Notes under the pieces: generated by a model
Seen by the model: only the letters and a program-made list of their open reading frames with translations
The model's database searches: none
What the model was told of the DNA's origin: nothing
Program-made: the position numbers and the translations under genes
DNA from: Fistulifera solaris
Lineage: Eukaryota
Assembly: GCA_030295235.1 (NCBI GenBank)
Contig: AP026125.1
Location: 930,001 to 994,000, forward strand
DNA length: 64,000 nt
Direction of reading: 5' to 3'
Shown: positions 26,457 through 58,424 of the stretch, piece after piece
Layout: each line of letters starts with the position of its first letter
How positions within the stretch are numbered: the stretch's first letter is position 1

Positions 26457-28364
26457 ATGGGTTCTTTTGGTTTACTAATACACTTTTTATGCGTCACCAT
26501 CCCATGCATCACCTTGGTGGGAGCTTTCGTGGTGAGTCCGGAACGACAAGACGCCCCTTACTGGTATCGACAGAGAAGTCAACAACGCTACAGTTCGAGA
26601 AGGCAAGATCTATACTCGGACTATGATGATTATTATCCTCCTCCGCCCGCTGGCTTTAAGGAAATAGAGGAATCGCTGGAGCAGCAATATCGTTCGACGA
26701 GTCGGTCGAGAGACTCAGGAATACCCTTCTTCCAACCCCCGCAAGACGCAACAATAACTAGATTTGATTACTTTGACGACGAAGAAGATTATTATCAAGA
26801 CGAAGAAGACGATGACAGAGCAAGAGGCAACTTCTGGGTGAATCCGGACGGCGTAGACGAGGTCGAAGCTCGTGACAGTCGTCGGCCACGGCGGCGGCCT
26901 TCCCAACCTCCGAAACGTCGAAAGTCAACAACATTTCGTTCCGGGTATCCATCCGTGCCTCCGCCAGTCAATGAATTGTACCATCGTCTATTTTGGTACG
27001 GTTTAGACCCCGATGCATCTTCGTCACCGGCGGACCGTACCATGTTCGGTGGGACCAAAGGGAAATTCAACGGATTGTCTTATTTGCAAGAAACTGATGG
27101 ACTTCCTCGCCCTCCTAGGAGAAGAAGGCGTCGTCTGCCTCCTCAAGCAACATCAGAGGACGTCGATGACGACGATTACATCTCTGAAAATTGGGGACCC
27201 GGGCCGTCCTATGAAGATGACTACGACGAATCCGATGATTACACCTTTTACAGTCGAGATAGAAAGCAGTTTTCAGCCTCCAATGACAAAAAGGATCAGT
27301 AACTCCTCCTTTCGACGCGCCTCAACAACGTCGAGACGTTAGTAGATCATCTTCCCGGCAAAAACGTCAACGTCCGCCGAAGCCGGCTCAAGAAAGTTGG
27401 GATAGTCCTGTGGCGAGATGGTTCAGCGACGAAGACGACCAAGATAAGGATGTAAGCGAAACACGGAGGCGAAAACGACAGAGGAAAAAGGATGGATGGT
27501 CCGCCTTCAATTTTGTTGATGCTTTCCTTGGTATTGATAGAGACGAACTTCAGAATCAAGCGAAGGACTATGAAAGAGGATGGGCATCGACAGGAATTCT
27601 CCTTCACGTCGACGTCGTCGTGACCGCCCAATGCCAGAGGCACCAAAGCAGCCAGCAAGATACAATCCTCCTGATCAGGATGAAGCTTCCTTTTCGATGA
27701 TGATGATGTTATTGACACTACAGCAAATAGAGTGGATACCCCTAAAGCAAGTGAAGAAGAGGAAGTACCAGTGAAAGAGCTTTCCTGGGAGGAGCGAGCG
27801 CTAGCTATTGAACGAGTACCTCCTGCTGGGATACCAGCTTGGGGGCCTACAGGTGAACTTGAGTTTGATGCGAGAACCAAAGCTGTCATCGACGCGTTTG
27901 AGGATATTGCCACGGCTAAAGATAGAGTAGAAAAACGAAAGAAGCGCGTTGAAGAGTGTAGAGAGGAGCTATCGATTTTACGGATTGACTTGGAGCTACA
28001 GAAAAAGCGCCTGAGACAAAGTCGGTTGAAATCACAAGCTGCCGCAGAGAAGTTGAGACGTATGGATTTGAACATGGACAACACCGCTCGAAAGTTACGT
28101 CGCGAGCTGATGAAGCTGAAGAACGCTAAGCAGGATCTTGTTGAGCTTGAAGCCCGGCACTGGGCAGTACTAGGCTTTTACGATCCTGAGCAAGCACGCG
28201 CTAACGTCGACGATGCTCTTCGCGAGTTCAAGGAAAATGAACCTGCCGTACGCTTTCTTTATGAAAAGAAGAGGACCCAGCTACGCATGATGAAGATCCT
28301 GCGTCGAGCTCTACTAGTGATGAATCGAATAAATGATAAAACTACGCCCCATTGTAAAATATAA
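26457..28364 (+). CDS. Uncharacterised probable plastid protein (D/R/P-rich N-terminus, C-terminal coiled coil)
   Basis: Presequence VGA-FVVSP; collinear ORFs 26457-27302, 27410-27700, 27580-27774 and 27732-28364 separated by several indels; SWEERALAIERVPPAGIPAWGPTG. Confidence 0.6.
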
Positions 28365-28409
28365 TGCATGATAGTAAGCTATTAATAACAGTGTTCTACT
28401 TTTCATTTA

Positions 28410-30128
28410 TTAGCATGACCACCATATCTGCAGGGCTGCGCGAATACCTGCTCGAACCGGCAAACGACACCGCCTGTTTTCTATTCCACCAGTAGATACG
28501 AGCACTCGACCTCGCGCGCCTTCAATTGAAATACCGCGCTGAATTTTACGGCGTGGGCGATAGTTGTCGGGGTGATTGTCAACGTAAAGAGCGGCGCCAC
28601 CGTGAAAATCCTCGCCACTCCCTTCTGATAGAAAGACAGTTGTTTGTATCGAAAACGAGGGATCTGCTTCCAAGTCGGCCAACAGATTGCAAACATCCCT
28701 CACCGGCTCTATGTTGAATGGCCAAGGAAGCGAATAGAGGGCCATGTCGTTCCGTCTTTCTGCCTTGTCCATCCAAAGCAGATAATTTGTACGATTCAGC
28801 AACTTTTCGAGTCGACTCGGAATTCGTCGGTCGAAAAGGCGAACTCCATTTCCGTCCATCGGTCCGACAGCGTTGACACGAAAAGCAACAGGTTGAATCT
28901 CTTGTGATACATTGTAGTGCGTCGACAGTAAATCGCGTAACTTGGTTACAACGGAGGGAACCATTGCTTGTAATAAGTCCACGTCGCGATGAATATCAAA
29001 ATGGTCGCCACCATGAGATATCAAATTTGCTCCCAACACACGAGCATCGAGCACTTCTTGATCTAAAATAAGATTGTCGTGAACTCCTCGAAAGCACAGT
29101 TTAGTAGCGGCTTTTGATGTCCTTCGTCCGGGTAGTACTGAACTGATACAGGATTGCGGAGCAATGCAAGAGGATGACGATGAAAGGGATTGTGTTGGCG
29201 CAGCGCACTCCATAAACCAAGAAGCTTGCACTCCACGCTCAATGAATGGTGCCAGAACGTTGATTTCTTCCGTCGACTTTGACTTCAAAAAGATATCGAC
29301 AATACTCTTCATCGACGGTATATGAAGAACGCCTCGGCTACAATCGACTTTGCTAGAAATTCTTAAAACCTCTTTGATAAAATCAATGAGATGAAACGGT
29401 CGTGAGTCTCTGTGCAAGATCGGGCACTCTTTTGCATGTACAAGCAGCAATTTTACATTCAGTATCTCCGACATGAGAGGATCTAATACGGGTCTTTCAA
29501 CGGCACTGTAATGAAAAATGGGTATCGTTTGGAGCATGATGCATATAAATGCGGTCACCACCATTAGAACGGCAAAACAGATGCGTCGGAAAGTCAAACT
29601 AGGTTGATGTCGTTCATTCGGATTCACCGGAATAAGCATTAAGTCGTCCTCGGGTACACCTTGTTCAAGATAGCGTCGCACTGCCCTCGCTATAGCATCG
29701 GCAGCAGCTTGTTCCTGTCGGCGCAACCAGAGATGCTCATCTTCATCACCGTGCCTATCGTTATTATTATTTGGTCGAGGTGGTGGTGGCAGGTCTCCAG
29801 CAGGAGGCTGCGGTGGATGTGATGTAGGTACGAGTCGTCCGAATTCATCGACGCGGGCATCGCCAATCTTGTGTTTCTGCATCAAATCATGGAGCTCGAG
29901 TCGACGTTTTCGATAGGCCCGCACCTGTTGCTGGTATCCGTCATTGGTGTTATCGGCTGGCAGATCCTTGCCCATGCAAAAGTCGGAAATGTCTTCATTG
30001 GTCAGGTTCTTTCGTTCCAAAAGGAGATGGGCGTCCAGTGAGTAATATTTGTAGCGATACAATTGCGAGGGCTCTTTCTTGCCGTCATGCGACCCCCCTT
30101 TTCTCCGCCGGGCAGAAGATGTTCTCAT
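28410..30128 (-). CDS. Type II membrane protein with OGFOD3-like 2OG-Fe(II) oxygenase fold, probably catalytically degenerate
   Basis: Single TM (ICFAVLMVVTAFICIML); C-terminal TTVFLS..EDFHGG..GRVLVSTGGIEN..V..GIR.ALQIWW resembles the P4H/OGFOD3 jelly-roll. Confidence 0.65.
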   Translation of the reverse strand: MRTSSARRRKGGSHDGKKEPSQLYRYKYYSLDAHLLLERKNLTNEDISDFCMGKDLPADNTNDGYQQQVRAYRKRRLELHDLMQKHKIGDARVDEFGRLVPTSHPPQPPAGDLPPPPRPNNNNDRHGDEDEHLWLRRQEQAAADAIARAVRRYLEQGVPEDDLMLIPVNPNERHQPSLTFRRICFAVLMVVTAFICIMLQTIPIFHYSAVERPVLDPLMSEILNVKLLLVHAKECPILHRDSRPFHLIDFIKEVLRISSKVDCSRGVLHIPSMKSIVDIFLKSKSTEEINVLAPFIERGVQASWFMECAAPTQSLSSSSSCIAPQSCISSVLPGRRTSKAATKLCFRGVHDNLILDQEVLDARVLGANLISHGGDHFDIHRDVDLLQAMVPSVVTKLRDLLSTHYNVSQEIQPVAFRVNAVGPMDGNGVRLFDRRIPSRLEKLLNRTNYLLWMDKAERRNDMALYSLPWPFNIEPVRDVCNLLADLEADPSFSIQTTVFLSEGSGEDFHGGAALYVDNHPDNYRPRRKIQRGISIEGARGRVLVSTGGIENRRCRLPVRAGIRAALQIWWSC

Positions 30129-30360
30129 TATTCGTTTACGGGCTACAGCAGGCTCAGAAACCGAAAGAAAACATGCTGTGTCCTCTATAATATGAATTTA
30201 AGGAGCAAACAGCACGTTATGATTGATCTGAAGTGGTACGAATATGTAAGATTACAAACTTAACACCTGGTATCAGGATTTATGATGAACGGCGTACCTG
30301 GTAGCCGTATTTTTTCTATAGCGGAGTACCAGGTATACCAGTATAATGCATGCAAACCCA

Positions 30361-32515
30361 CTCCAGATTTTCTGGAAGACACAAAGACCTTCTCCAGAAT
30401 TTCTGGACTATCCACAGAATTTCTGTATGACGATATCGCGAATTCCAGAATTTCTGGAATTTGCACAGAAACACTGTTTGATGAAAATTACCACGTCCAG
30501 ACTAATGTGAAACCACACAGAATTTCGGTATGATCCAAAACAACGAGGTCCAAAGTTATTTTGACGTGCACATGTTTTCTGTGAGATGGAAACATGGAAA
30601 CACCTGGTCCAGAATTTCTGGACCATCCACAGAATTTCTGTATGTCCATATCACAATTTCCAGAATTTCTGTATGACGAGATCGCGAATTCCAGAATTTC
30701 TGGAATTACCACGTCCAGACTAATGTGAAACCACACAGAATTTCGGTATGATCCAAAACAACGAGGTCCAATGTTATTTTGACGTGCACATGTTTTCTGT
30801 GAGATGGAAACATGGAAACACCTGGTCCAGAATTTCTGGACCATCCACAGAATTTCTGTATGACGATATCGCACTTTCCAGAATTTCTGTATGACGAGAT
30901 CGCGAATTCCAGAATTTCTGGAATTTGCACAGAAATGCTGTTTGATGAAAATTACCACGTCCAGACTAATGTGAAACGACACCGAATTTCGGTATGATCC
31001 AAAGCAACGAGGTCCAATGTTATTTTGACGCGCACATGTTTTCTGTGAGATGGAAACATGGAAACACCTGGTCCAGAATTTCTGGACCATCCACAGAATT
31101 TCTGTATGACGATATCGCGAATTCCAGAATTTCTGGAATTAGCACAGAAACGCTGTTTTATAAAATTTACCACGTCCAGACTAATGTGAAACGACACCGA
31201 ATATCGGGTTGATCCAAAACAACGAGGTCCTATGTTATTTTGACGCGCACATGTTTTCTGTGAGATGGAAACATGGAAACACCTGGTCCAGAATTTCTTG
31301 ACCATCCACAGAATTTCTGTATGACGATATCGCATTTTCCAGAATTTCTGGAATTTGCACAGAAATGCTGTTTGATGAAAATTACCACGTCCAGACTAAT
31401 GTGAAACGACACCGAATTTCGGTATGATCCAAAGCAACGAGGTCCAATGTTATTTTGACGCGCACATGTTTTCTGTGAGATGGAAACATGGAAACACCTG
31501 GTCCAGAATTTCTGGACCATCCACAGAATTTCTGTATGACGATATCGCGAATTCCAGAATTTCTGGAATTAGCACAGAAACGCTGTTTTATAAAATTTAC
31601 CACGTCCAGACTAATATGAAACGACGCCGAATATCGGGTTGATCCAAAACAACGAGGTCCAATGTTATTTTGACGCGCACATTTTTTCTGTGAGATGGAA
31701 ACATGGAAACACCTGGTCCAGAATTTCTTGACCATCCACAGAATTTCTGTATGACGATATCGCATTTTCCAGAATTTCTGGAATTAGCACAGAAACGCTG
31801 TTTTATAAAATTTACCACGTCCAGACTAATGTGAAACGACGCCGAATATCGGGTTGATCCAAAACAACGAGGCCCAAAGTTATTTTGACGCGCACATTTT
31901 TTCTGTGAGATGGAAACATGGAAACACCTGGTCCAGAATTTCTTGACCATCCACAGAATTTCTGTATGACGATATCGCATTTTCCAGAATTTCTGGAATT
32001 TGCACAGAAATGCTGTTTGATGAAAATTACCACGTCCAGACTAATGTGAAACGACACCGAATTTCGGTATGATCCAAAGCAACGAGGTCCAATGTTATTT
32101 TGACGCGCACATGTTTTCTGTGAGATGGAAACATGGAAACACCTGGTCCAGAATTTCTTGACCATCCACAGAATTTCTGAATGACGATATCGCATTTTCC
32201 AGAATTTCTGGAATTTGCACAGAAACGCTGTTTTATAAAAATTACCACGTCCAGACTAATGTGAAACGACACCGAATATCGGGTTGATCCAAAACAACGA
32301 GGTCCTATGTTATTTTGACGTCCACATGTTTTCTGTGAGATGGAAACACCTGGTCCAGAATTTCTTGACCATCCACAGAATTTCTGTATGACGATATCGC
32401 ACTTTCCAGAATTTCAGTTCTGTACACCTTACCAGTACGTATGATTAACCTCTACCAGAATCTCTGAATCGTTCCTGATAACTTACAAAGATTTTTTCCA
32501 GAATTTCTGGAATTT
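30361..32515. repeat. Higher-order tandem array, 215-bp unit x ~9.5, built from ~52-bp palindromic monomers
   Basis: ACCACGTCCAGACTAAT at ~30490, 30708, 30954, 31169, 31384, 31599, 31814, 32029, 32244; many CCAGAATTTCTGG palindromes. Confidence 0.97.
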
Positions 32516-32702
32516 GTTGACACCGTTACGAGGTACAATGAGTGATGAAAGCGACCATGATGAGTGATGAGTGGGGCCTTTGCACAGTATCCGTCCGCTT
32601 CAATCATATTCCTCGAGACTATGAAGGGCTATCTTCCAACTTATCCTCAATAATCAATATTAAAAACGATTGTACCATTGATGAAACGGTTGGTTCGAGT
32701 TT

Positions 32703-33670
32703 ATGAACGCTTCGAGCTACACAAAGACAATTATGAGGTTACGCAGAGCGTTGGACCGAGTCCGCTTCATGGTACTTGCATTACCGCTCCTCCCTTTGCT
32801 CTTTGAAGCAGACTCCTCGCAGTATTATGGCAATCGGAGATTACAGGTCGCGTCAGAAACATTCCAACAGGTTCCGGTTGCATACAAAGATCAGTTCCCT
32901 TTGGATTCAACTGTTCATTGCATCGGTGGAACTTTTGGATTGTTCCATGAAAACGACTGGCTGTACCGTTCCTGTGAATTTCGCAACATTTGCTTCGACC
33001 TGAGCGCTCAAGAATTTGTCTTGTTTCCGTCGAAAGAAGAGCAGGAACTTGCAGAACTTCTCAAAACGAATCCAATAGTTTCTGTGTCGACAGTCAGTTC
33101 GCCGTCGTTTCAAGTTGCGCTTAGTGCAGTAGATCCTCCCGATCCGAGTCAGCTTGATGACCGAGCGAGAATGGAAGTGCACAAAAGAACTTATCGTGGT
33201 TTCCTCTGGTCAGAAACACGAAGGCCACCAAAGGATATTACGAACTCCCTGAATCGCATATTTTTGTCCCTTTCCAAGAAAGCCATCCGATGTCACCGGA
33301 TTCCCTCGTCAACAAAGATTTCCTTTCCTTGTTTACCCTACTTTACGAATTCGGACTGGAAGAAAAGAAGCCGATTTTCATCCGACATGGGACTCATCTT
33401 CCTCTTTGCGACAAAAAGTGTGAAATATTGCTAAAGACTCATTTGCAAATCGACGCTTCCAAACCGATCCTTTCCGGAATTGACCATCGATCTAGCGACT
33501 TAGTGTGCGCCAAGTATGGAGTCGCAGGACTAGGTATGCGTATGACAGGAACGCGTCCTGTTCGTGACAAGGATGGCTCGTGGTTATATACACATACCGT
33601 TGGACGCCATGCTACGAAACGGGCATTTCAGAAATACATGGAAACTTGGGAAAAGACAGCGCGGGATTGA
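32703..33670 (+). CDS. Secreted/membrane protein resembling the N-terminal part of GT61-like glycosyltransferases
   Basis: Hydrophobic anchor, RRLQ, VHCIG, YRSCEFRNICFD, VCAKYGVAGLG..HTVGR; indel between ORFs 32703-33434 and 33290-33670. Confidence 0.5.
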
Positions 33671-33878
33671 AGAATACGCTGGGAAACTTGCACAACAAAG
33701 AAATCGTACTTCGACTCAGAACGATAACATTGACCGAAGAATCCTTAGGATTAGTTTATCGTTTGTGTGCACCAATTCTGTGAATGAATGTCGAAAAATT
33801 TGAAAGCCTTTCGTAATCTACAAGGAAACAAAAGCTACTAAAATTATTCACAAAGAACATGAAGCGAGAAGCGGCACC

Positions 33879-35416
33879 TCATAGATCGACCGTATCTTTG
33901 GAATTGTATGGCCTAATCATTCTTGTTCGTGGAGTGCTAGGTGTCGAAGTTGACCCCGTCGATATAAATGCAGGATAAAAGAACGTTTTTTCGCTGCGTG
34001 AGTATTTGTTACTGTATTCCCGCAAAATGGCAGAACCTGCAGCGGTCGAAGCGTCGTCAGGAATAATGTAAGCTCGGTGCATCGAGTTCTCACTGTAAGA
34101 ATTATCGTCCTTGTTTATGTAACTGTCGTCGTCCATAGTGTCCACTGCTTGTGCAAGCGACTCCTCTGGTCGAATCGTCCCTCGTTCTTGGAGTTTCTCG
34201 ACATCCAGAGTCTCTTTTCGTCGCTTGCGATACGCGACTGCGACAACAATGACAAGAATCACAGCCGCTGCTGCTACGGCCGCGACACCCGCAAAAAGTG
34301 GAACTCTGTTGATGTTGCTGTCTGAAGTGACTTCCCCTTCAACAGCTGGCGTGCCTTGTTCCCCTTCGTCTATTTCAGGATTACCACCGAATGTCGGAAC
34401 CCCTGAATCATCAGCGTTGGTAAAGCCCTCAAATTTTATCCCAACAATCTCATTTTGCGGACCTCTTAACACTCCGCTACTGAAAAAGCCGTCGAGGAAA
34501 GTTCCAAATGCCTGAGTGACCTGCAAATCTACGGTCTGTTGCAGTCGACGAGCATTGATAAAATAAAAGATTTCGACAGTAAAGGCTGCGTCGACGAAAA
34601 AGCACGAAGCAGTATCCCCATTATCCTCCTCCTCGCAAGATCTCAGGACATCATCTTTGGGAAGGGAATCGACGGAACGGATCTGAAAAGGCATTGTGGT
34701 CGAATTTCTATACGGACAAACAAGCAGTTCTGCAGTGACATTGTTATGTAGCTCGCGTTCGACATAATTCAGGACGGTATTTCGGTTCGCTCCGTCCCGC
34801 AAGGAAAGCTTGTATTGAAACTGGACTAGTTGCTCCGTCACATCGGAGGTGTTTCCGGGCATCTCTGCCACACAATCGGTGAAGAGTTCCAAAGTTCCGT
34901 CTTGTCGTTCCGTCACAACTGTCTCAACAACGAATGTAGGGGTTGATGAAGGGGCATACGAATCAGTCGGAACAAGAGAAGGCTGAACGGATGGTTCTGC
35001 AGCAAATTGTGAGACTGAAGGAATCGACAGAAACAAAGAGCACGTTGAAACGTCGAGAGGCTGTTACCTTGACTGGGCATATTTGTCGGAATGGTCGAAG
35101 GCAAAATGGACGGTATTTGCGTTGGTGTCATGGTAGGAACTACCGAGGGTACAAGGGAAGGATATTCCGATGGAGAAGCGGACGCCATGGCGCTGGGAAA
35201 AGAACTAGGTGCCGGTGAAGATGAAGGACGAAGACTATTCGAAGGTGCGCTCGATGGCACATCGGTTTTGTGACCCAGTTTTCGACTATTCCAATTATCC
35301 CCTTCATCGAATACATTGCGCAATCCCAGTGTAACACCACGAATCCCGTGAACTCTGTACTGTAGCAGGCTAAAACAGATCAGGACTATCCATACTGATC
35401 GTCGATGGTAATACAT
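33879..35416 (-). CDS. Type I cell-surface membrane protein with Pro/Ser/Thr-rich repeats
   Basis: Signal peptide, PSxxPSxxP repeats, intron 34997-35067, RRLQ motif, single TM followed by YRKRRK. Confidence 0.75.
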
Positions 35417-53477: not shown

Positions 53478-53710
53478 TCCAGAAAAACTGGGCAAGTGCT
53501 ATCATGACACTCCCAGAAAATCTGGGAATGAGGTATTTTCACATATCCAGAAAACCTGGGTAAGTGGTATTATGGCGTTCCCAGAAAACCAGAGCATGTG
53601 GTACTTGCACGTATCCAGAAAACCTGGAGAAGTGACATCATTAGGTGATCAGAAAACCTGGGGGAGTGGTACAGTATTTGCTATTTGCACGTGTCCAGAA
53701 AACCGGGGCA
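53478..53710. repeat. 34-bp-period ladder of CCAGAAAA(C/T)CTGGG motifs
   Basis: Motif at 53479, 53513, 53547, 53581, 53615, 53649 and ~53695 with diverged 20-nt linkers. Confidence 0.9.
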
Positions 53711-53724
53711 GGAAATTTACCAGA

Positions 53725-54700
53725 TTCCAGAATTTCTGGAAAATGCACAAAATCATTGTGTGACGGAAAGCCCCGATCCCGAAATATCTGAAACGTGCAC
53801 CGAATCTCTGTGCCCACCCAATCACCTAATCCAAAATATTTGGAAGTCTCGCCGAGCGTCTGTACGACCCAATACCAGGGTACACCGAGTCCAGAATATC
53901 TGGACCTGCCACAGAATTTCTGTGTGACCGAAATACCGATCCCAGAATTTCTGGAATTAGAAAAAATGTTACTTTGAATCCGAAACACGGATCCCAAAAT
54001 TCCTGGAAAGTGCACAAAAGCTTTGTGCGACGCAGAGCACCTAATCCAAAATATCGGGAATTCTCAAAGAATGTCTGCACGACCTAAAACAGCGATTCCA
54101 GAACTTCTGGAAAATGCACAAAATCATTGTGTGACGGAAAGCCCCGATCCCGAAATATCTGAAACGTGCACCGAATCTCTGTGCCCACCCAATCACCTAA
54201 TCCAAAATATTTGGAAGTCTCGCCGAGCGTCTGTACGACCCAATACCAGGGTACACCGAGTCCAGAATATCTGGACCTGCCACAGAATTTCTGTGTGACC
54301 GAAATACCGATCCCAGAATTTCTGGAATTAGAAAAAATGTTACTTTGAATCCGAAACACGGATCCCAAAATTCCTGGAAAGTGCACAAAAGCTTTGTGCG
54401 ACGCAGAGCACCTAATCCAAAATATCGGGAATTCTCAAAGAATGTCTGCACGACCTAAAACAGCGATTCCAGAACTTCTGGAAAATACACAAAATCATTG
54501 TCTGACGAAAAGCCCCGATCCCGAAACATCTGAAACGTGCACCGAATCTCTGTGCCCACCCAATCACCTAATCCAAAATATCTGGAAGTCTCGCCGAGCG
54601 TCTGTACGACCCAATAGACCGAGTCCAGAATATCTGGACCTGTCACGGAATTTCTGTGTTTACGAGATGCCGATTCCAGAATTTCTGGAATTAGAAAAAA
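53725..54700. repeat. Higher-order tandem array, 371-bp unit x ~2.6 (seven ~52-bp palindromic monomers per unit)
   Basis: Unit starts at ~53725, 54096 and 54467; monomer starts at 53727, 53779, 53831, 53891, 53942, 53994, 54046. Confidence 0.97.
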
Positions 54701-54734
54701 TTATATTTTATACGTCCTTGGGACTACTACCGCA

Positions 54735-54860
54735 CCAGACAACCAGGGCATGTGCTATTTGCACTTGTCCAGAAAATCTGGGCATTTAGTACTTGTCCAG
54801 AAAATCTGGGGATGTGGCATTTTCACTTGCCCAGAATTTGGGCAGGTCACGCCCAGATTC
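54735..54860. repeat. Right-hand ladder of CCAGAAAATCTGGG motifs
   Basis: Motif at ~54735, 54769, 54797 and 54831, in the same orientation as the left ladder. Confidence 0.85.
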
Positions 54861-54945: not shown

Positions 54946-57900
54946 TCATTGGAAGAAGTACTTAGCAGATCGTACCTCACTGAGATCAAGGTCACCGCGC
55001 TCTGGAAGAGGTGGAAATTCTAGATCCGGATATCGCATTTTCCAGTCAGCTAAAAGGATAGAGTAAGCTACATGCAAGGCGTCGAATTCTGCAACATCAC
55101 AACGGGACATGACGTACCAAGTTGCTCTTCCAAGAGCGGCCTTTCATACAGTTCAACAAATGTATCTCGTAGCGCCATATTCATTTCATCTATGTCACAA
55201 GGGTGAGTCCAGAATGAGTCGTGGACAGCAGAAAAGCTAAGTCCACGTCGATCCATCTCGAGAGCAGTAAACAGCATATGAGAAGCGTCCAGTGAATGTA
55301 CAAAATTTGGTGGAAATGCTGACACTTGTCGACTTGAGTGCAAAGGCAAATCGTCATTGCTTTCGATCAGAGAAACAACTTGCATCAGCGTTACAACTTT
55401 GGATGACTTCTTTCGTCTGTATGGTTGAATTGCCGGTAACCCGATGGGTGAAATCCACGCCACAGGATAACCTAGTTGAGTGATCATCCGGGCACAAGTT
55501 GTAAGCCAATTCATCGTTTCTTTTGCTCCCGTAAATACTTGACCCATTACCTCCATCGTTACTCGTGCCAGATATCCACAAGCACGAAAAACTTCAAGAT
55601 TCATCTCATCGATATCACACCCGAGACTCTCCAGCTGAGGGCACGAAATAACAATAAGAACAAAATCGACATATGTAAATCAATCGCTTCGCGTTTATTA
55701 CCAACCTTCTCTTCAATTTTTTCCTGAATTTGTTGTCTAGCACCAATGTACGTTACCCCATACACACTGGTCATCACAGTTCTTTTGACAACTCCACGAT
55801 CAATCAAACCATCGACAAGCTTAGCAGCTCTGTTGTTCGCAAGAATTTTCTTTTGTTTCCTGGTAAGCGCCTCAACATCGCTAGTATCGAAATCAATCGT
55901 TTGCGAAGCTTCCTCAGCTACGCGCCGAATGACTTCAGTCATTACACCCGAGTACACATCCTGTGGCTTGTCGGTATTGCGAAGATTCACCGCCTTTCCT
56001 CCAACCGCATCTCGTCCTAGTGCTGCGTAATGCTGCAAGCCATTACAAGAGCCATCCATATGTACAGGCAAGTTACACATGTAGGATTCAGGATCTCCTG
56101 AATCTATCGCAGCAATAATTTCAGCACACGCAGCAAGTCCCTGGAAAGGATCGTCTAATGTCATCCACCATCGATCACCAGCAAACGGATCCTCGACAGA
56201 AGCTCGTACTTTATCAATATTTTCATCAATGTAGGCAGCTCGTTCTTCTAAAGTCACTTTGTCTTTACCCGCAAAATTGGCGAGATGTACTTTCAACCAA
56301 AAAAGACCCCTCGGCCCGAGCGGCTTAGCCTCTGCAAACTTTAGTAGACCACGACACAGATCCGACCCAACAATCGAAAGATGCGGCGTGATGGGGTAAA
56401 CACGACCACGGAAATCCATGTTGTAAGGGAAGTATATCTCTTTAAAATCTTTGAATTTGTCAGCCTGATCAAGCTTGAGAACAACTGAACATCTTAGAGA
56501 GACCAGGTCCTGCAAATATTGTTTGTGGTCAGCTCGCTATTCCATGGGATCAACAAGACTCATGAAGCACTTACCGAGTTTCTTTGGCGCATTCTATCGT
56601 ATCTGGCACGAGCTTCGCGGTAGGCTCGCATCTCAGAAATGTAGCTATCATACTCAGGATGCCCCTTTTCAAGCTTCTGAGTTGGCCGCTCTGGTCTAAT
56701 AGGCTCCGGAGGTACTTCAAAGTCTGTCTTAGACGGAATATCCCCAATAGCTATGTTCCGTGCCCAGCACTCCTCCGCCACCGACAAAATTCTCTTGTTG
56801 ATTACCCAAGGAATCTTTGAAAGCGAATTTAACCCATCGTACACAGTATTCAAATTTGCGTGATTAAGTGCCTCCTAAAGCATTGTTAGATCGACTCTCA
56901 GACAGAACGAGTCCCAACAGCGTGCTACATCACGTACCAGTTGAAGATCGCATCCATGATACCTTACGATATCACTTTTTAGCCACAGATAACCACCCTC
57001 TTTTGGTTTCGTCCACGGTTTTGGAGGTAAAATCATAGGCTTTTGCCTTGTCGTTGTTTGAGAGAAGCTTTGTAATCTATCGCTGATGACCATATTCCGA
57101 AGTTTCTCGTTGAGAGTTACATATGCTCGCGACTTGTCTTTCCTTGTCCATCTTTTCTCGAAAACAAAAGCTGGCTCACCTTTTCTACCACCGTCTTTAA
57201 CCGTTGCACAGTCAAGAAGAACTTTGAAAAGTGCCGCACCGAGTTGTATTTTATCGCGTTCCGTCCACTGCTCATCGTTTTCAAGAACTTGTCTGGCTCG
57301 CCAAATTGCGAACGACGCCAGTCTTTGGCTCTTAGGCTTGAACTCCTTTAATTCGTCTAGATAATTCTGAAGATGAGAAGTGGAATAAGTCCATCTTTTC
57401 GTAGGATCTTCCTCGGCTGCCTTTATCTTGCCTTCCCCTAAAAATCCACCGTCGCGCGCATTCGAACTATTTACATCGTCGTTTTCAGGCTCATCGTCAG
57501 TGGCTTCATCGTCTAGTATGTTTGACACATTCAGTACGGAAGCTCTGGCTTGTGACTCTTTATATCTCTGATGAAGAACTCTTTGAATAATGACTTCGTC
57601 TTCAACAGCTTGCCCTAACTGCCTCGCAATCACCGAGAAAGGAGTACCGTGTAGACTATTATTGCTGTTGGTCAACGTTTCCATGATTGCCGTGTGAGCA
57701 GCGATAACAGCCAGCTTTGCCGGTGGTAGCGTACAAAGAAATGGACCAAACCGTTGAGCTGATTTCGAAACATCGCCCTCCGACTTTTCCCGAAAAATGT
57801 AATCTTTTGTCTCTTTTCGATAGCATCTACCAGCGGTTGAAACCACCATAACACCTGGCGCTGAACCAAAGATAGACTAGAATAATCTTTCCTTTTTCTC

Positions 57901-58424
57901 GCGCTTTCAATGACTTTCTGGTATTTGAGTACAGCTTCTTGTTGCGCCTCACACTCTAGCCACAATTGCAACTCTTCGAGATTGTCCATGGACGGAGGTT
58001 TTTGAGGGTCGAATCGATTCAGCATTTCGGCGGGAGACAGCCCCAAATCAAGTGCACGACCATCATCCGCTGACTCTAACACGTCACTAACGTCACTATT
58101 CTCTGCTTCATAAGATACATCTTCGCCCAATTCTAAATCCAAAGTACGACCGCCCCACGAAATCGAATCCCGCTTCTGAAATTCTTTCCGATGCGGAAAC
58201 ATTTCCGCTATCGACTGGGCAGTAATATATTCCACACGTTCATCGACTTCATCATCCATATTATCTGTCGACGCCCAATGCGCCAAGACAGGCCGTGAAC
58301 TGAAATCGGTTTGCCGAAACGGCAAGGCCCGTTCGTTGACGGCGCGGCGCCTCCGCGAAGCTCCCAGCCGCCACAAGCGCACATGTTGCGCGGTCCGCCG
58401 CGATATCACAATGGCTGCTTGCAT
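54946..58424 (-). CDS. RPOT: Nuclear-encoded mitochondrial T7-type single-subunit RNA polymerase
   Basis: DFRGRVYP, PVHMDGSCNGLQHYAALGRD, RGVVKRTVMTSVYGVT, FPPNFVHSLDASH, VHDSFWTH, terminal KYFFQ; several introns and an indel near 57790. Confidence 0.96.

Follow-up and report, generated by a model that had tools for sequence, protein, structure and literature searches.

Satellites and related repeats

Alpha satellite, with its CENP-B box, is a higher-order satellite that carries a conserved short box, and human satellite III, a target of HSF1, is a precedent for a satellite acting as a landing pad for protein. Diatom satellite DNA is almost undescribed. The subject here is a tandem array of the diatom Fistulifera solaris, array 1, at positions 30361-32515 (+ strand) of a window of 64,000 nucleotides (the whole stretch of DNA analysed; GenBank assembly GCA_030295235.1, contig AP026125.1, positions 930,001 to 994,000). 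Array 1 is an ordinary lineage-specific higher-order satellite. Its 215-bp unit is built from four diverged monomers that bear short palindromes (dyads), and a related array, array 2, lies in the same window. No account of this array family was found among the matches listed for diatom satellites and tandem repeats in the literature, and the exact palindrome appears in no paper found.

Several other systems invite comparison. In the Helentron Cg_HINE of the oyster Crassostrea gigas, tandem arrays are flanked on the left and right by conserved element modules (PMC7492417). Clusters of motifs proposed as centromeres or autonomously replicating sequences (ARS) in Fistulifera solaris itself are non-coding and intergenic and are reported to occur at intervals along the chromosomes, with a G+C content of 36-42% (Maeda et al. 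preprint, 10.1101/2021.11.10.468027). The heat-shock factors (HSFs) of the stramenopile Phytophthora infestans bind GAATTC, TTCTAGAA and TTCNGAA, which have gaps of 0, 2 and 1 nt, respectively (PMC11267843). The top motif of PtHSF2 in CUT&Tag (cleavage under targets and tagmentation) is a telomere-like repeat and is unhelpful for the dyads described here (PMC11986044).

Unit structure of array 1

Array 1 is a genuine tandem satellite with higher-order repeat structure, consisting of ~9.5 head-to-tail units of 215 bp. Tandem Repeats Finder gives a 215-bp period at 30879-32415 (7.2 copies, 93% matches, no indels) as well as a 430-bp super-period starting at 30393, the latter arising from the alternation of two unit variants, A and B. 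Splitting 30361-32515 at the recurrent junction word ACCTGGTCCAGAATTTCT yields pieces of 241, 218 and 246 bp, five of 215 bp, and two of 207 and 168 bp. A TCC-N17-CAC frame repeats within the unit at 51/52/53/59 bp and divides it into four diverged monomers, M1 to M4, whose alignment is gap-free across the first 35 columns. Units are 93% alike, whereas the monomers are only 52-65% alike. The description of a 215-bp tandem array of four monomers, made earlier from the letters alone (the sequence-only reading), is borne out by the period search, the junction-word cuts and the frame.

In the canonical unit, M1 (51 bp, 31072-31122, +) has a first dyad, GGTCCAGAATTTCTGGACC, with 9-nt arms and a second dyad, ACAGAATTTCTGT, their centres 20 bp apart. 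M2 (52 bp, 31123-31174, +) has a first dyad with 10-nt arms, AATTCCAGAATTTCTGGAATT, and an ACAG-N5-CTGT second dyad. The first dyad of M3 (53 bp, 31175-31227, +) is decayed; its second dyad, CCGAAT(A/T)TCGG, is a symmetric double change relative to CAGAATTTCTG, and this pair provides the variants with preserved dyad symmetry that had been reported from the letters. M4 (59 bp, 31228-31286, +) also has a decayed first dyad, followed by a CACA-N7-TGTG second dyad, and its added length disrupts the helical phase. Units 2 and 3 are made longer by 31-bp sub-repeats at 30630-30702 (+, 2.4 copies) and 30848-30920 (+), respectively. Both edges of the array are decayed: the left one (30260-30360, +) holds ACCTGGTA/ACCAGGTA words and one degenerate monomer head, with likeness to array 2 starting at 30327, and the right one (32416-32515, +) holds the final intact CCAGAATTTCTGG at 32498-32510.

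Array 1 is non-coding, because its period is not divisible by 3, the open reading frames within it end inside two units, and it matches no Rfam family (none at E<=1 inside the array). Its G+C content is 40%. Methylation-driven decay was considered and rejected, as there is no CpG depletion (observed/expected 1.05 in the array and 1.12 in the window). That the array is transcribed and its hairpins processed, as a source of structured or small RNA, is extremely unlikely. A 430-nt double unit does fold better than its shuffles on both strands (z -5.5 and -3.8), but this excess follows trivially from the palindromes, the 9-bp stems with 3-nt loops are unlike known small-RNA precursors, and the lack of an Rfam match also argues against such a role.

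A second array and common descent

The only other sizeable tandem array in the window is array 2, at 53478-54836. Its core (53723-54701, +) is a 371-bp higher-order repeat present 2.7 times, each copy made of seven monomers of 50-60 bp. The left part (53478-53700, +) consists of 34-bp repeats with one CCAGAAAAYCTGG dyad each, and the right part (54735-54850, +) of 34/28-bp repeats with CCAGAAAATCTGG dyads. The 371-bp core is thus an array within an array, flanked left and right by 34/28-bp repeats that belong to its own family and run in its orientation. Solitary copies outside the arrays were not found in the window with an nhmmer monomer profile: 85 of its 92 matches fall in the two arrays and the other 7 have E>=3.

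Arrays 1 and 2 align in register and on the same strand; identity is 57-66% across as much as 1134 nt, and 40 of the 42 BLAST pieces are plus/plus. The similarity ends at 30327-32472 in array 1 and at 53721-54712 in array 2. Each monomer of array 1 has a counterpart in array 2, M1 matching N4, M2 matching N5, M3 matching N2 and M4 matching N3, and array 2 has three additional monomers. M1 is the best conserved monomer between the arrays (81% identical to N4). The in-register alignment and the monomer correspondence show that the arrays come from one ancestral unit in which several monomers were already present. The arrays differ from each other by ~40%, whereas units of the same array are 93-96% alike, as is usual where repeats are homogenised locally.

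Assembly support and further copies

Two read sets match the 28000-35000 stretch of the window, X1 (organism A) and X2 (a wetland metagenome). Contigs from both cross the two junctions between array 1 and its flanks with 0-2 differences, at 29991-30439 and 32386-32813 in X1 and at 29694-30442 and 32386-33071 in X2. With both junctions present in contigs from independent read sets, array 1 is not an assembly artefact. The wetland metagenome holds the 28000-35000 locus with 0-2 differences per 700 bp, and the same or a nearly identical diatom is thus present in those data.

Both read sets also contain many contigs that match this 7 kb, most of them imperfectly. The totals are 416 in X1 and 392 in X2, of which 308 and 293, respectively, are only 90-99% alike. 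A further feature is the partly fitting contig (177 in X1, 174 in X2), whose loose ends resemble other monomers of the family. In these loose ends, and in the letters between joined parts, the dyad core is common with array 1 and the tails are different. The summed contig depth over array 1 is 10-30 times that of the flanks, a figure that collapsed units of array 1 could also raise; the count of non-identical contigs was therefore chosen over depth as the evidence for copies. As shown by these contig sequences, further copies of the family lie elsewhere in the genome, with array 1 being one of many. Searches of other collections gave nothing comparable. Twenty loci with CCAGAANNTCTGGNNNNNNCACAGAA in metagenome contigs (JGI, Joint Genome Institute) are single-site, with no array, and were set aside as chance matches. 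All 16 loci with a similar pattern in viral contigs (IMG/VR) are likewise single-site, with no arrays. A BLAST search of a phage collection with array 1 gave no match, but this collection is uninformative for a diatom.

Dispersal between genes would be explained if the arrays formed the centre of a non-autonomous DNA transposon, either Helentron-like or a repeat-bearing miniature inverted-repeat transposable element (MITE), as the sequence-only reading had proposed in calling array 1 the possible body of a mobile element. In favour are the scatter of the family through gene-rich DNA, the shared orientation and decayed edges of the two arrays, and the oyster, where elements of this kind are known to carry short euchromatic arrays (PMC7492417). 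Against this, the two copies, which are ~40% diverged, share nothing in the flanks examined (430-1020 bp per side). There is no terminal pair among the 25 longest of the 61 inverted-repeat pairs, all 25 being dyads, and no transposase-like open reading frame occurs in or beside array 1. For these two copies, the lack of terminal inverted repeats and of a common flank argues against the proposal, and we regard a transposon-borne origin as quite improbable. A match to an already described transposable element or satellite was not found either, Repbase and Dfam not having been compared.

Spacing and phasing of the dyads

The dyads are nearly confined to the two arrays. Of the window's CCAG-N5-CTGG sites, all 31 belong to them (16 in array 1, 15 in array 2), and of its 58 CAG-N5-CTG sites, 55 do. 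Each monomer had been described as carrying a CCAG-N5-CTGG-type and a CACAG-N5-CTGTG-type palindrome. A first and a second dyad are both present in M1 and M2, and an intact first palindrome occurs in these two only, its counterparts in M3 (CCAGACTAATGTG) and M4 (CCWATGTTATTTT) having decayed. The strict CACAG-N5-CTGTG form is absent from array 1, both of its matches in the window being in array 2. Instead, the second dyads of array 1 take the forms ACAG-N5-CTGT, CCGA-N3-TCGG and CACA-N7-TGTG.

The centres of the palindromes had further been described as alternating ~20 and ~31 bp apart, with all sites on roughly one DNA face. CAG-N5-CTG centres do show the 20/31-bp alternation in the M1-M2 half of each unit, but it does not extend to the rest. 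Over the whole unit the steps between dyad centres are 20, 31, 20, 52, 53 and 39 bp. All but the last approximate whole numbers of helical turns; the phase is broken at the 39-bp step because of the 59-bp monomer M4. Related repeats with periods of 34, 31 and 28 bp do not keep the helical phase. A dinucleotide periodicity of 9.8-10.8 bp, A/T or G/C, was absent in 12 of 12 tests (p 0.09-0.72 against shuffles). With the phase broken and no ~10-bp A/T signal, neither a common DNA face for all sites nor nucleosome positioning by helical phasing is upheld. The strongest dinucleotide period in both arrays is 8.6 bp (31066-31495 and 53726-54096), the sixth harmonic of the ~52-bp monomer. The A/T power of array 2 at 8.6 bp is 1934; a shuffle mean of ~225 was computed for the 9.8-10.8-bp band and not for 8.6 bp.

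Origin of the arrays and conservation of the dyads

The explanation that we favour, and hold to be somewhat better than an even bet, is that of a non-coding diatom satellite whose multi-monomer unit derives from an old ~52-bp dyad monomer, was seeded between genes, and is homogenised locally. In the ancestral ~52-bp monomer, a short dyad with the core YCAGAAnTTCTGR would have been present twice, at a distance of 20 bp. This monomer may then have diversified into a multi-monomer higher-order unit, copies of which would have been seeded at several intergenic sites. Each array would have been expanded and homogenised locally through unequal crossing-over or replication slippage, the route of expansion being inferred; this local process is proposed as the reason why units within an array are so similar and the two arrays so different. 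The palindromes themselves would be inherited from the ancestral monomer. Their retention most probably reflects either weak constraint, e.g., from a dimeric protein that binds them, or template switching by which one arm corrects the other.

Conservation was examined in a set of 11 old monomer types with 26 arm columns and 22 other columns. The dyad arms are the slowest-changing part of the monomer: information content averages 1.24 bits in arm columns and 0.76 bits elsewhere (Mann-Whitney p=0.0016). Across the family, the best-kept bases are the outer CC(A)...(T)GG and CAC(A)...(T)GTG and not the inner GAA/TTC. Complementary arm-pair cells number 122 of 187, compared to 109.7 in column shuffles (p about 0.001) and 30-66 when the partners are slid, and 9 extra types of complementary pair are observed where 5.2 are expected (p about 0.03). 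There is thus a modest excess of symmetric substitutions in the monomer alignment. Two stepwise compensations can be traced. In the second dyad of M3, A/T passes to A/G (units 1-2) and then to C/G (units 3-9), the one-sided intermediate, CAGAATTTCGG, persisting in units 1-2 (30496 and 30714). In the first dyad of N3, G/C passes to A/C (copy 3) and then to A/T (copies 1-2). An asymmetric state, C/T, is held in all three copies of N2.

Several points weigh against the favoured account, or limit what can be drawn from these figures. i) Corresponding monomers of arrays 1 and 2 agree at 69 of 104 positions in the arms and at 43 of 88 elsewhere (p=0.019), but the tails were compared without gaps, so their identity is possibly understated. 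ii) The shuffles behind the symmetry excess disregard the kinship of the monomers, and several covarying pairs may represent one old event (M1/N4, M2/N5/N1). iii) The better conservation of the arms, together with the stepwise compensations in M3 and N3, is unexpected under plain neutrality. iv) The symmetry-breaking G>T change (CTGG>CTTG), now in 5 of 10 M1 copies, is unexpected under strong selection. v) Variable sites within the arrays, 12 of 214 in arms versus 35 of 364 outside them, do not differ significantly (p=0.11). vi) No contig spans the interior of array 1, and the number of units thus comes from the assembly alone. vii) What is known of how many copies the family has, how they are spaced and next to which genes they lie comes from short-read contigs and two arrays. 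Our reading is that the dyads have been preserved weakly over the long term, without strong present-day selection on each site.

A stronger proposal, close to one made in the sequence-only reading, is that the dyads are putative landing pads, bound by a dimeric or oligomeric sequence-specific protein, in arrays that work independently of position as a chromatin boundary, a replication origin or a satellite of the stress-body type. We consider this a possible but doubtful explanation. It would fit the arms being the most conserved columns and the palindrome-bearing M1 being 81% identical between the arrays. The other loci keep the dyad core while their tails differ, and dyads are found again in repeats of three different architectures (52, 34 and 31 bp). 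The modest symmetry excess and the two compensations point the same way. On the other side, symmetry-breaking variants persist and spread. What stands of the dimeric-protein landing pad is that the arms are best conserved and slightly in excess of symmetry; what does not is any significant lowering of recent variation in the arms, and the G>T change has reached half of the M1 copies. A protein-binding role of the dyads, still putative, is plausible.

A member of the expanded HSF family is a candidate binder, as a lead only, since the first dyad reads TTCcaGAAtTTCtgGAA. This sequence, present in M2 and N1-type dyads only, has a 1-nt central gap and is sometimes preceded by GAATTC. In Phytophthora infestans, HSFs recognise TTC/GAA pairs whose halves are 0, 1 or 2 nt apart (PMC11267843). 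No heat-shock element, taken as at least three contiguous alternating nGAAn units, is found in the dyads, and a canonical run of three such units with 2-nt gaps is lacking. The bases conserved best are not the inner GAA/TTC, and many variants (CCAGAAAACCTGG, CACAAAATCATTGTG) are without GAA/TTC pairs. In its widest form, the proposal would have dyad landing pads between genes throughout the genome, bound by a lineage-expanded dimeric factor, perhaps HSF-like. They would mark chromatin boundaries, act as origins of replication or form satellite bodies that respond to stress, and selection would preserve the dyads against drift in the remainder of the monomer. This we think unlikely.

The dyads might also be maintained by DNA structure, without binding or selection. 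Hairpins in single-stranded DNA would promote slippage and expansion, and template switching at quasi-palindromes would copy one arm to the other. Quasi-palindrome template switching is established in bacteria, yeast and human. As single strands, the first dyads (19-21 bp) form stable 9-bp hairpins of -8.8 and -9.2 kcal/mol (z -4.5 and -6.2), and both compensations are found with one-sided intermediates. The second dyads fold weakly (-2.6 and -2.9 kcal/mol) and yet are conserved, and asymmetric states are stable in all N2 copies and in half of the M1 copies. As a complete explanation, structure is very unlikely. A cruciform, another possibility named in the sequence-only reading, would draw on the same folds, with 9-10-nt arms and stable hairpins in the first dyads but weak ones in the second, and its extrusion in vivo is hypothetical.

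Genomic setting

Judged from its gene content, the window comes from the nuclear genome of a raphid pennate diatom. It contains long, intron-poor open reading frames for PPR, WD40, HEATR5 and SF3b2 proteins, and the relatives of SF3b2 come from Amphora, Mayamaea, Seminavis, Nitzschia and others. Array 1 occupies the space between two divergent genes, as had been stated, with the start of a minus-strand open reading frame at 30128 and that of a plus-strand one at 32703. The left neighbour (28410-30128, -), of 572 aa, has its start codon 233 bp from the array. It is probably a 2OG-Fe(II) oxygenase-like protein, a lead that comes from a Pfam Oxygenase-NA match below the cut-off (E 0.088) and a protein Atlas hit of high score, just short of the level above which hits are taken as more than leads. 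The right neighbour (32703-33434, +), a 243-aa orphan possibly continued in 33290-33670, has its start codon 188 bp from the array; no family was recognised for it, and its Atlas hits are leads only, below the same level.

A DUF1995 gene and a T7-like RNA polymerase gene converge on array 2, which lies between their 3' ends. With array 1 between divergent starts and array 2 between convergent ends, there is no consistent association with promoters, and no gene-specific role of the arrays is indicated. The T7-like (phage-type, organellar) RNA polymerase gene (55068-58424, -), the 3' end of which abuts array 2, is spread over four open reading frames (RPOL_N, RNA_pol), suggesting introns or frame changes. 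Between array 1 and the right-hand gene, at 32539-32591 (+), there is a match to the sR17 C/D-box small nucleolar RNA model with 19 bits, below the gathering threshold of 36 (E 0.27). The same segment contains repeated TGATGA words. No transfer RNA genes were found in the window. One sequencing run, X4, guessed to be RNA, has zero depth over 29638-33615; it also misses the right-hand gene wholly and is hence uninformative.

Significance and comparison with known systems

As known now, array 1 is a well-characterised yet ordinary repeat. Short dyad-bearing arrays in gene-rich DNA are a handy marker for array turnover and for subgenome comparison in an allopolyploid diatom. Should the dyads prove to be protein-bound, the arrays would become candidates for boundary or origin elements and be useful for diatom artificial chromosomes.

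Like the motif clusters of Maeda et al., array 1 comes from the same species and is non-coding and intergenic, and its 40% G+C is in the upper end of their 36-42%. As an instance of the published centromere/ARS motif it was rejected, having no match to the three consensus motifs (10.1101/2021.11.10.468027). Pieces of motifs 1 and 3 have no match in the window at <=3 mismatches, and the smallest p in 12 local alignments of the motifs with the arrays is 0.03. Like the binding sites of stramenopile HSFs, the first dyad is made of TTC/GAA half-sites with 2-, 1- and 0-nt gaps (PMC11267843). Unlike heat-shock elements, it has no three-unit run, and the family keeps the outer CCA/TGG and CACA/TGTG. 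With the Cg_HINE elements of Crassostrea gigas the family shares many short related tandem arrays scattered in gene-rich DNA; unlike them, arrays 1 and 2 have no common flank (PMC7492417).

A close parallel is with alpha satellite, from which the family differs in scale and in the nature of its box. In place of megabase centromeric blocks there are arrays of 1-2 kb, made of a ~52-bp monomer and placed between the genes of a compact genome, and in place of the CENP-B box there is a pair of dyads, the binder of which is only putative. In its organisation the family is like alpha satellite: the monomers are old, diverged and arranged head to tail, the units are homogenised within each array, and a short motif is kept while the monomer drifts.

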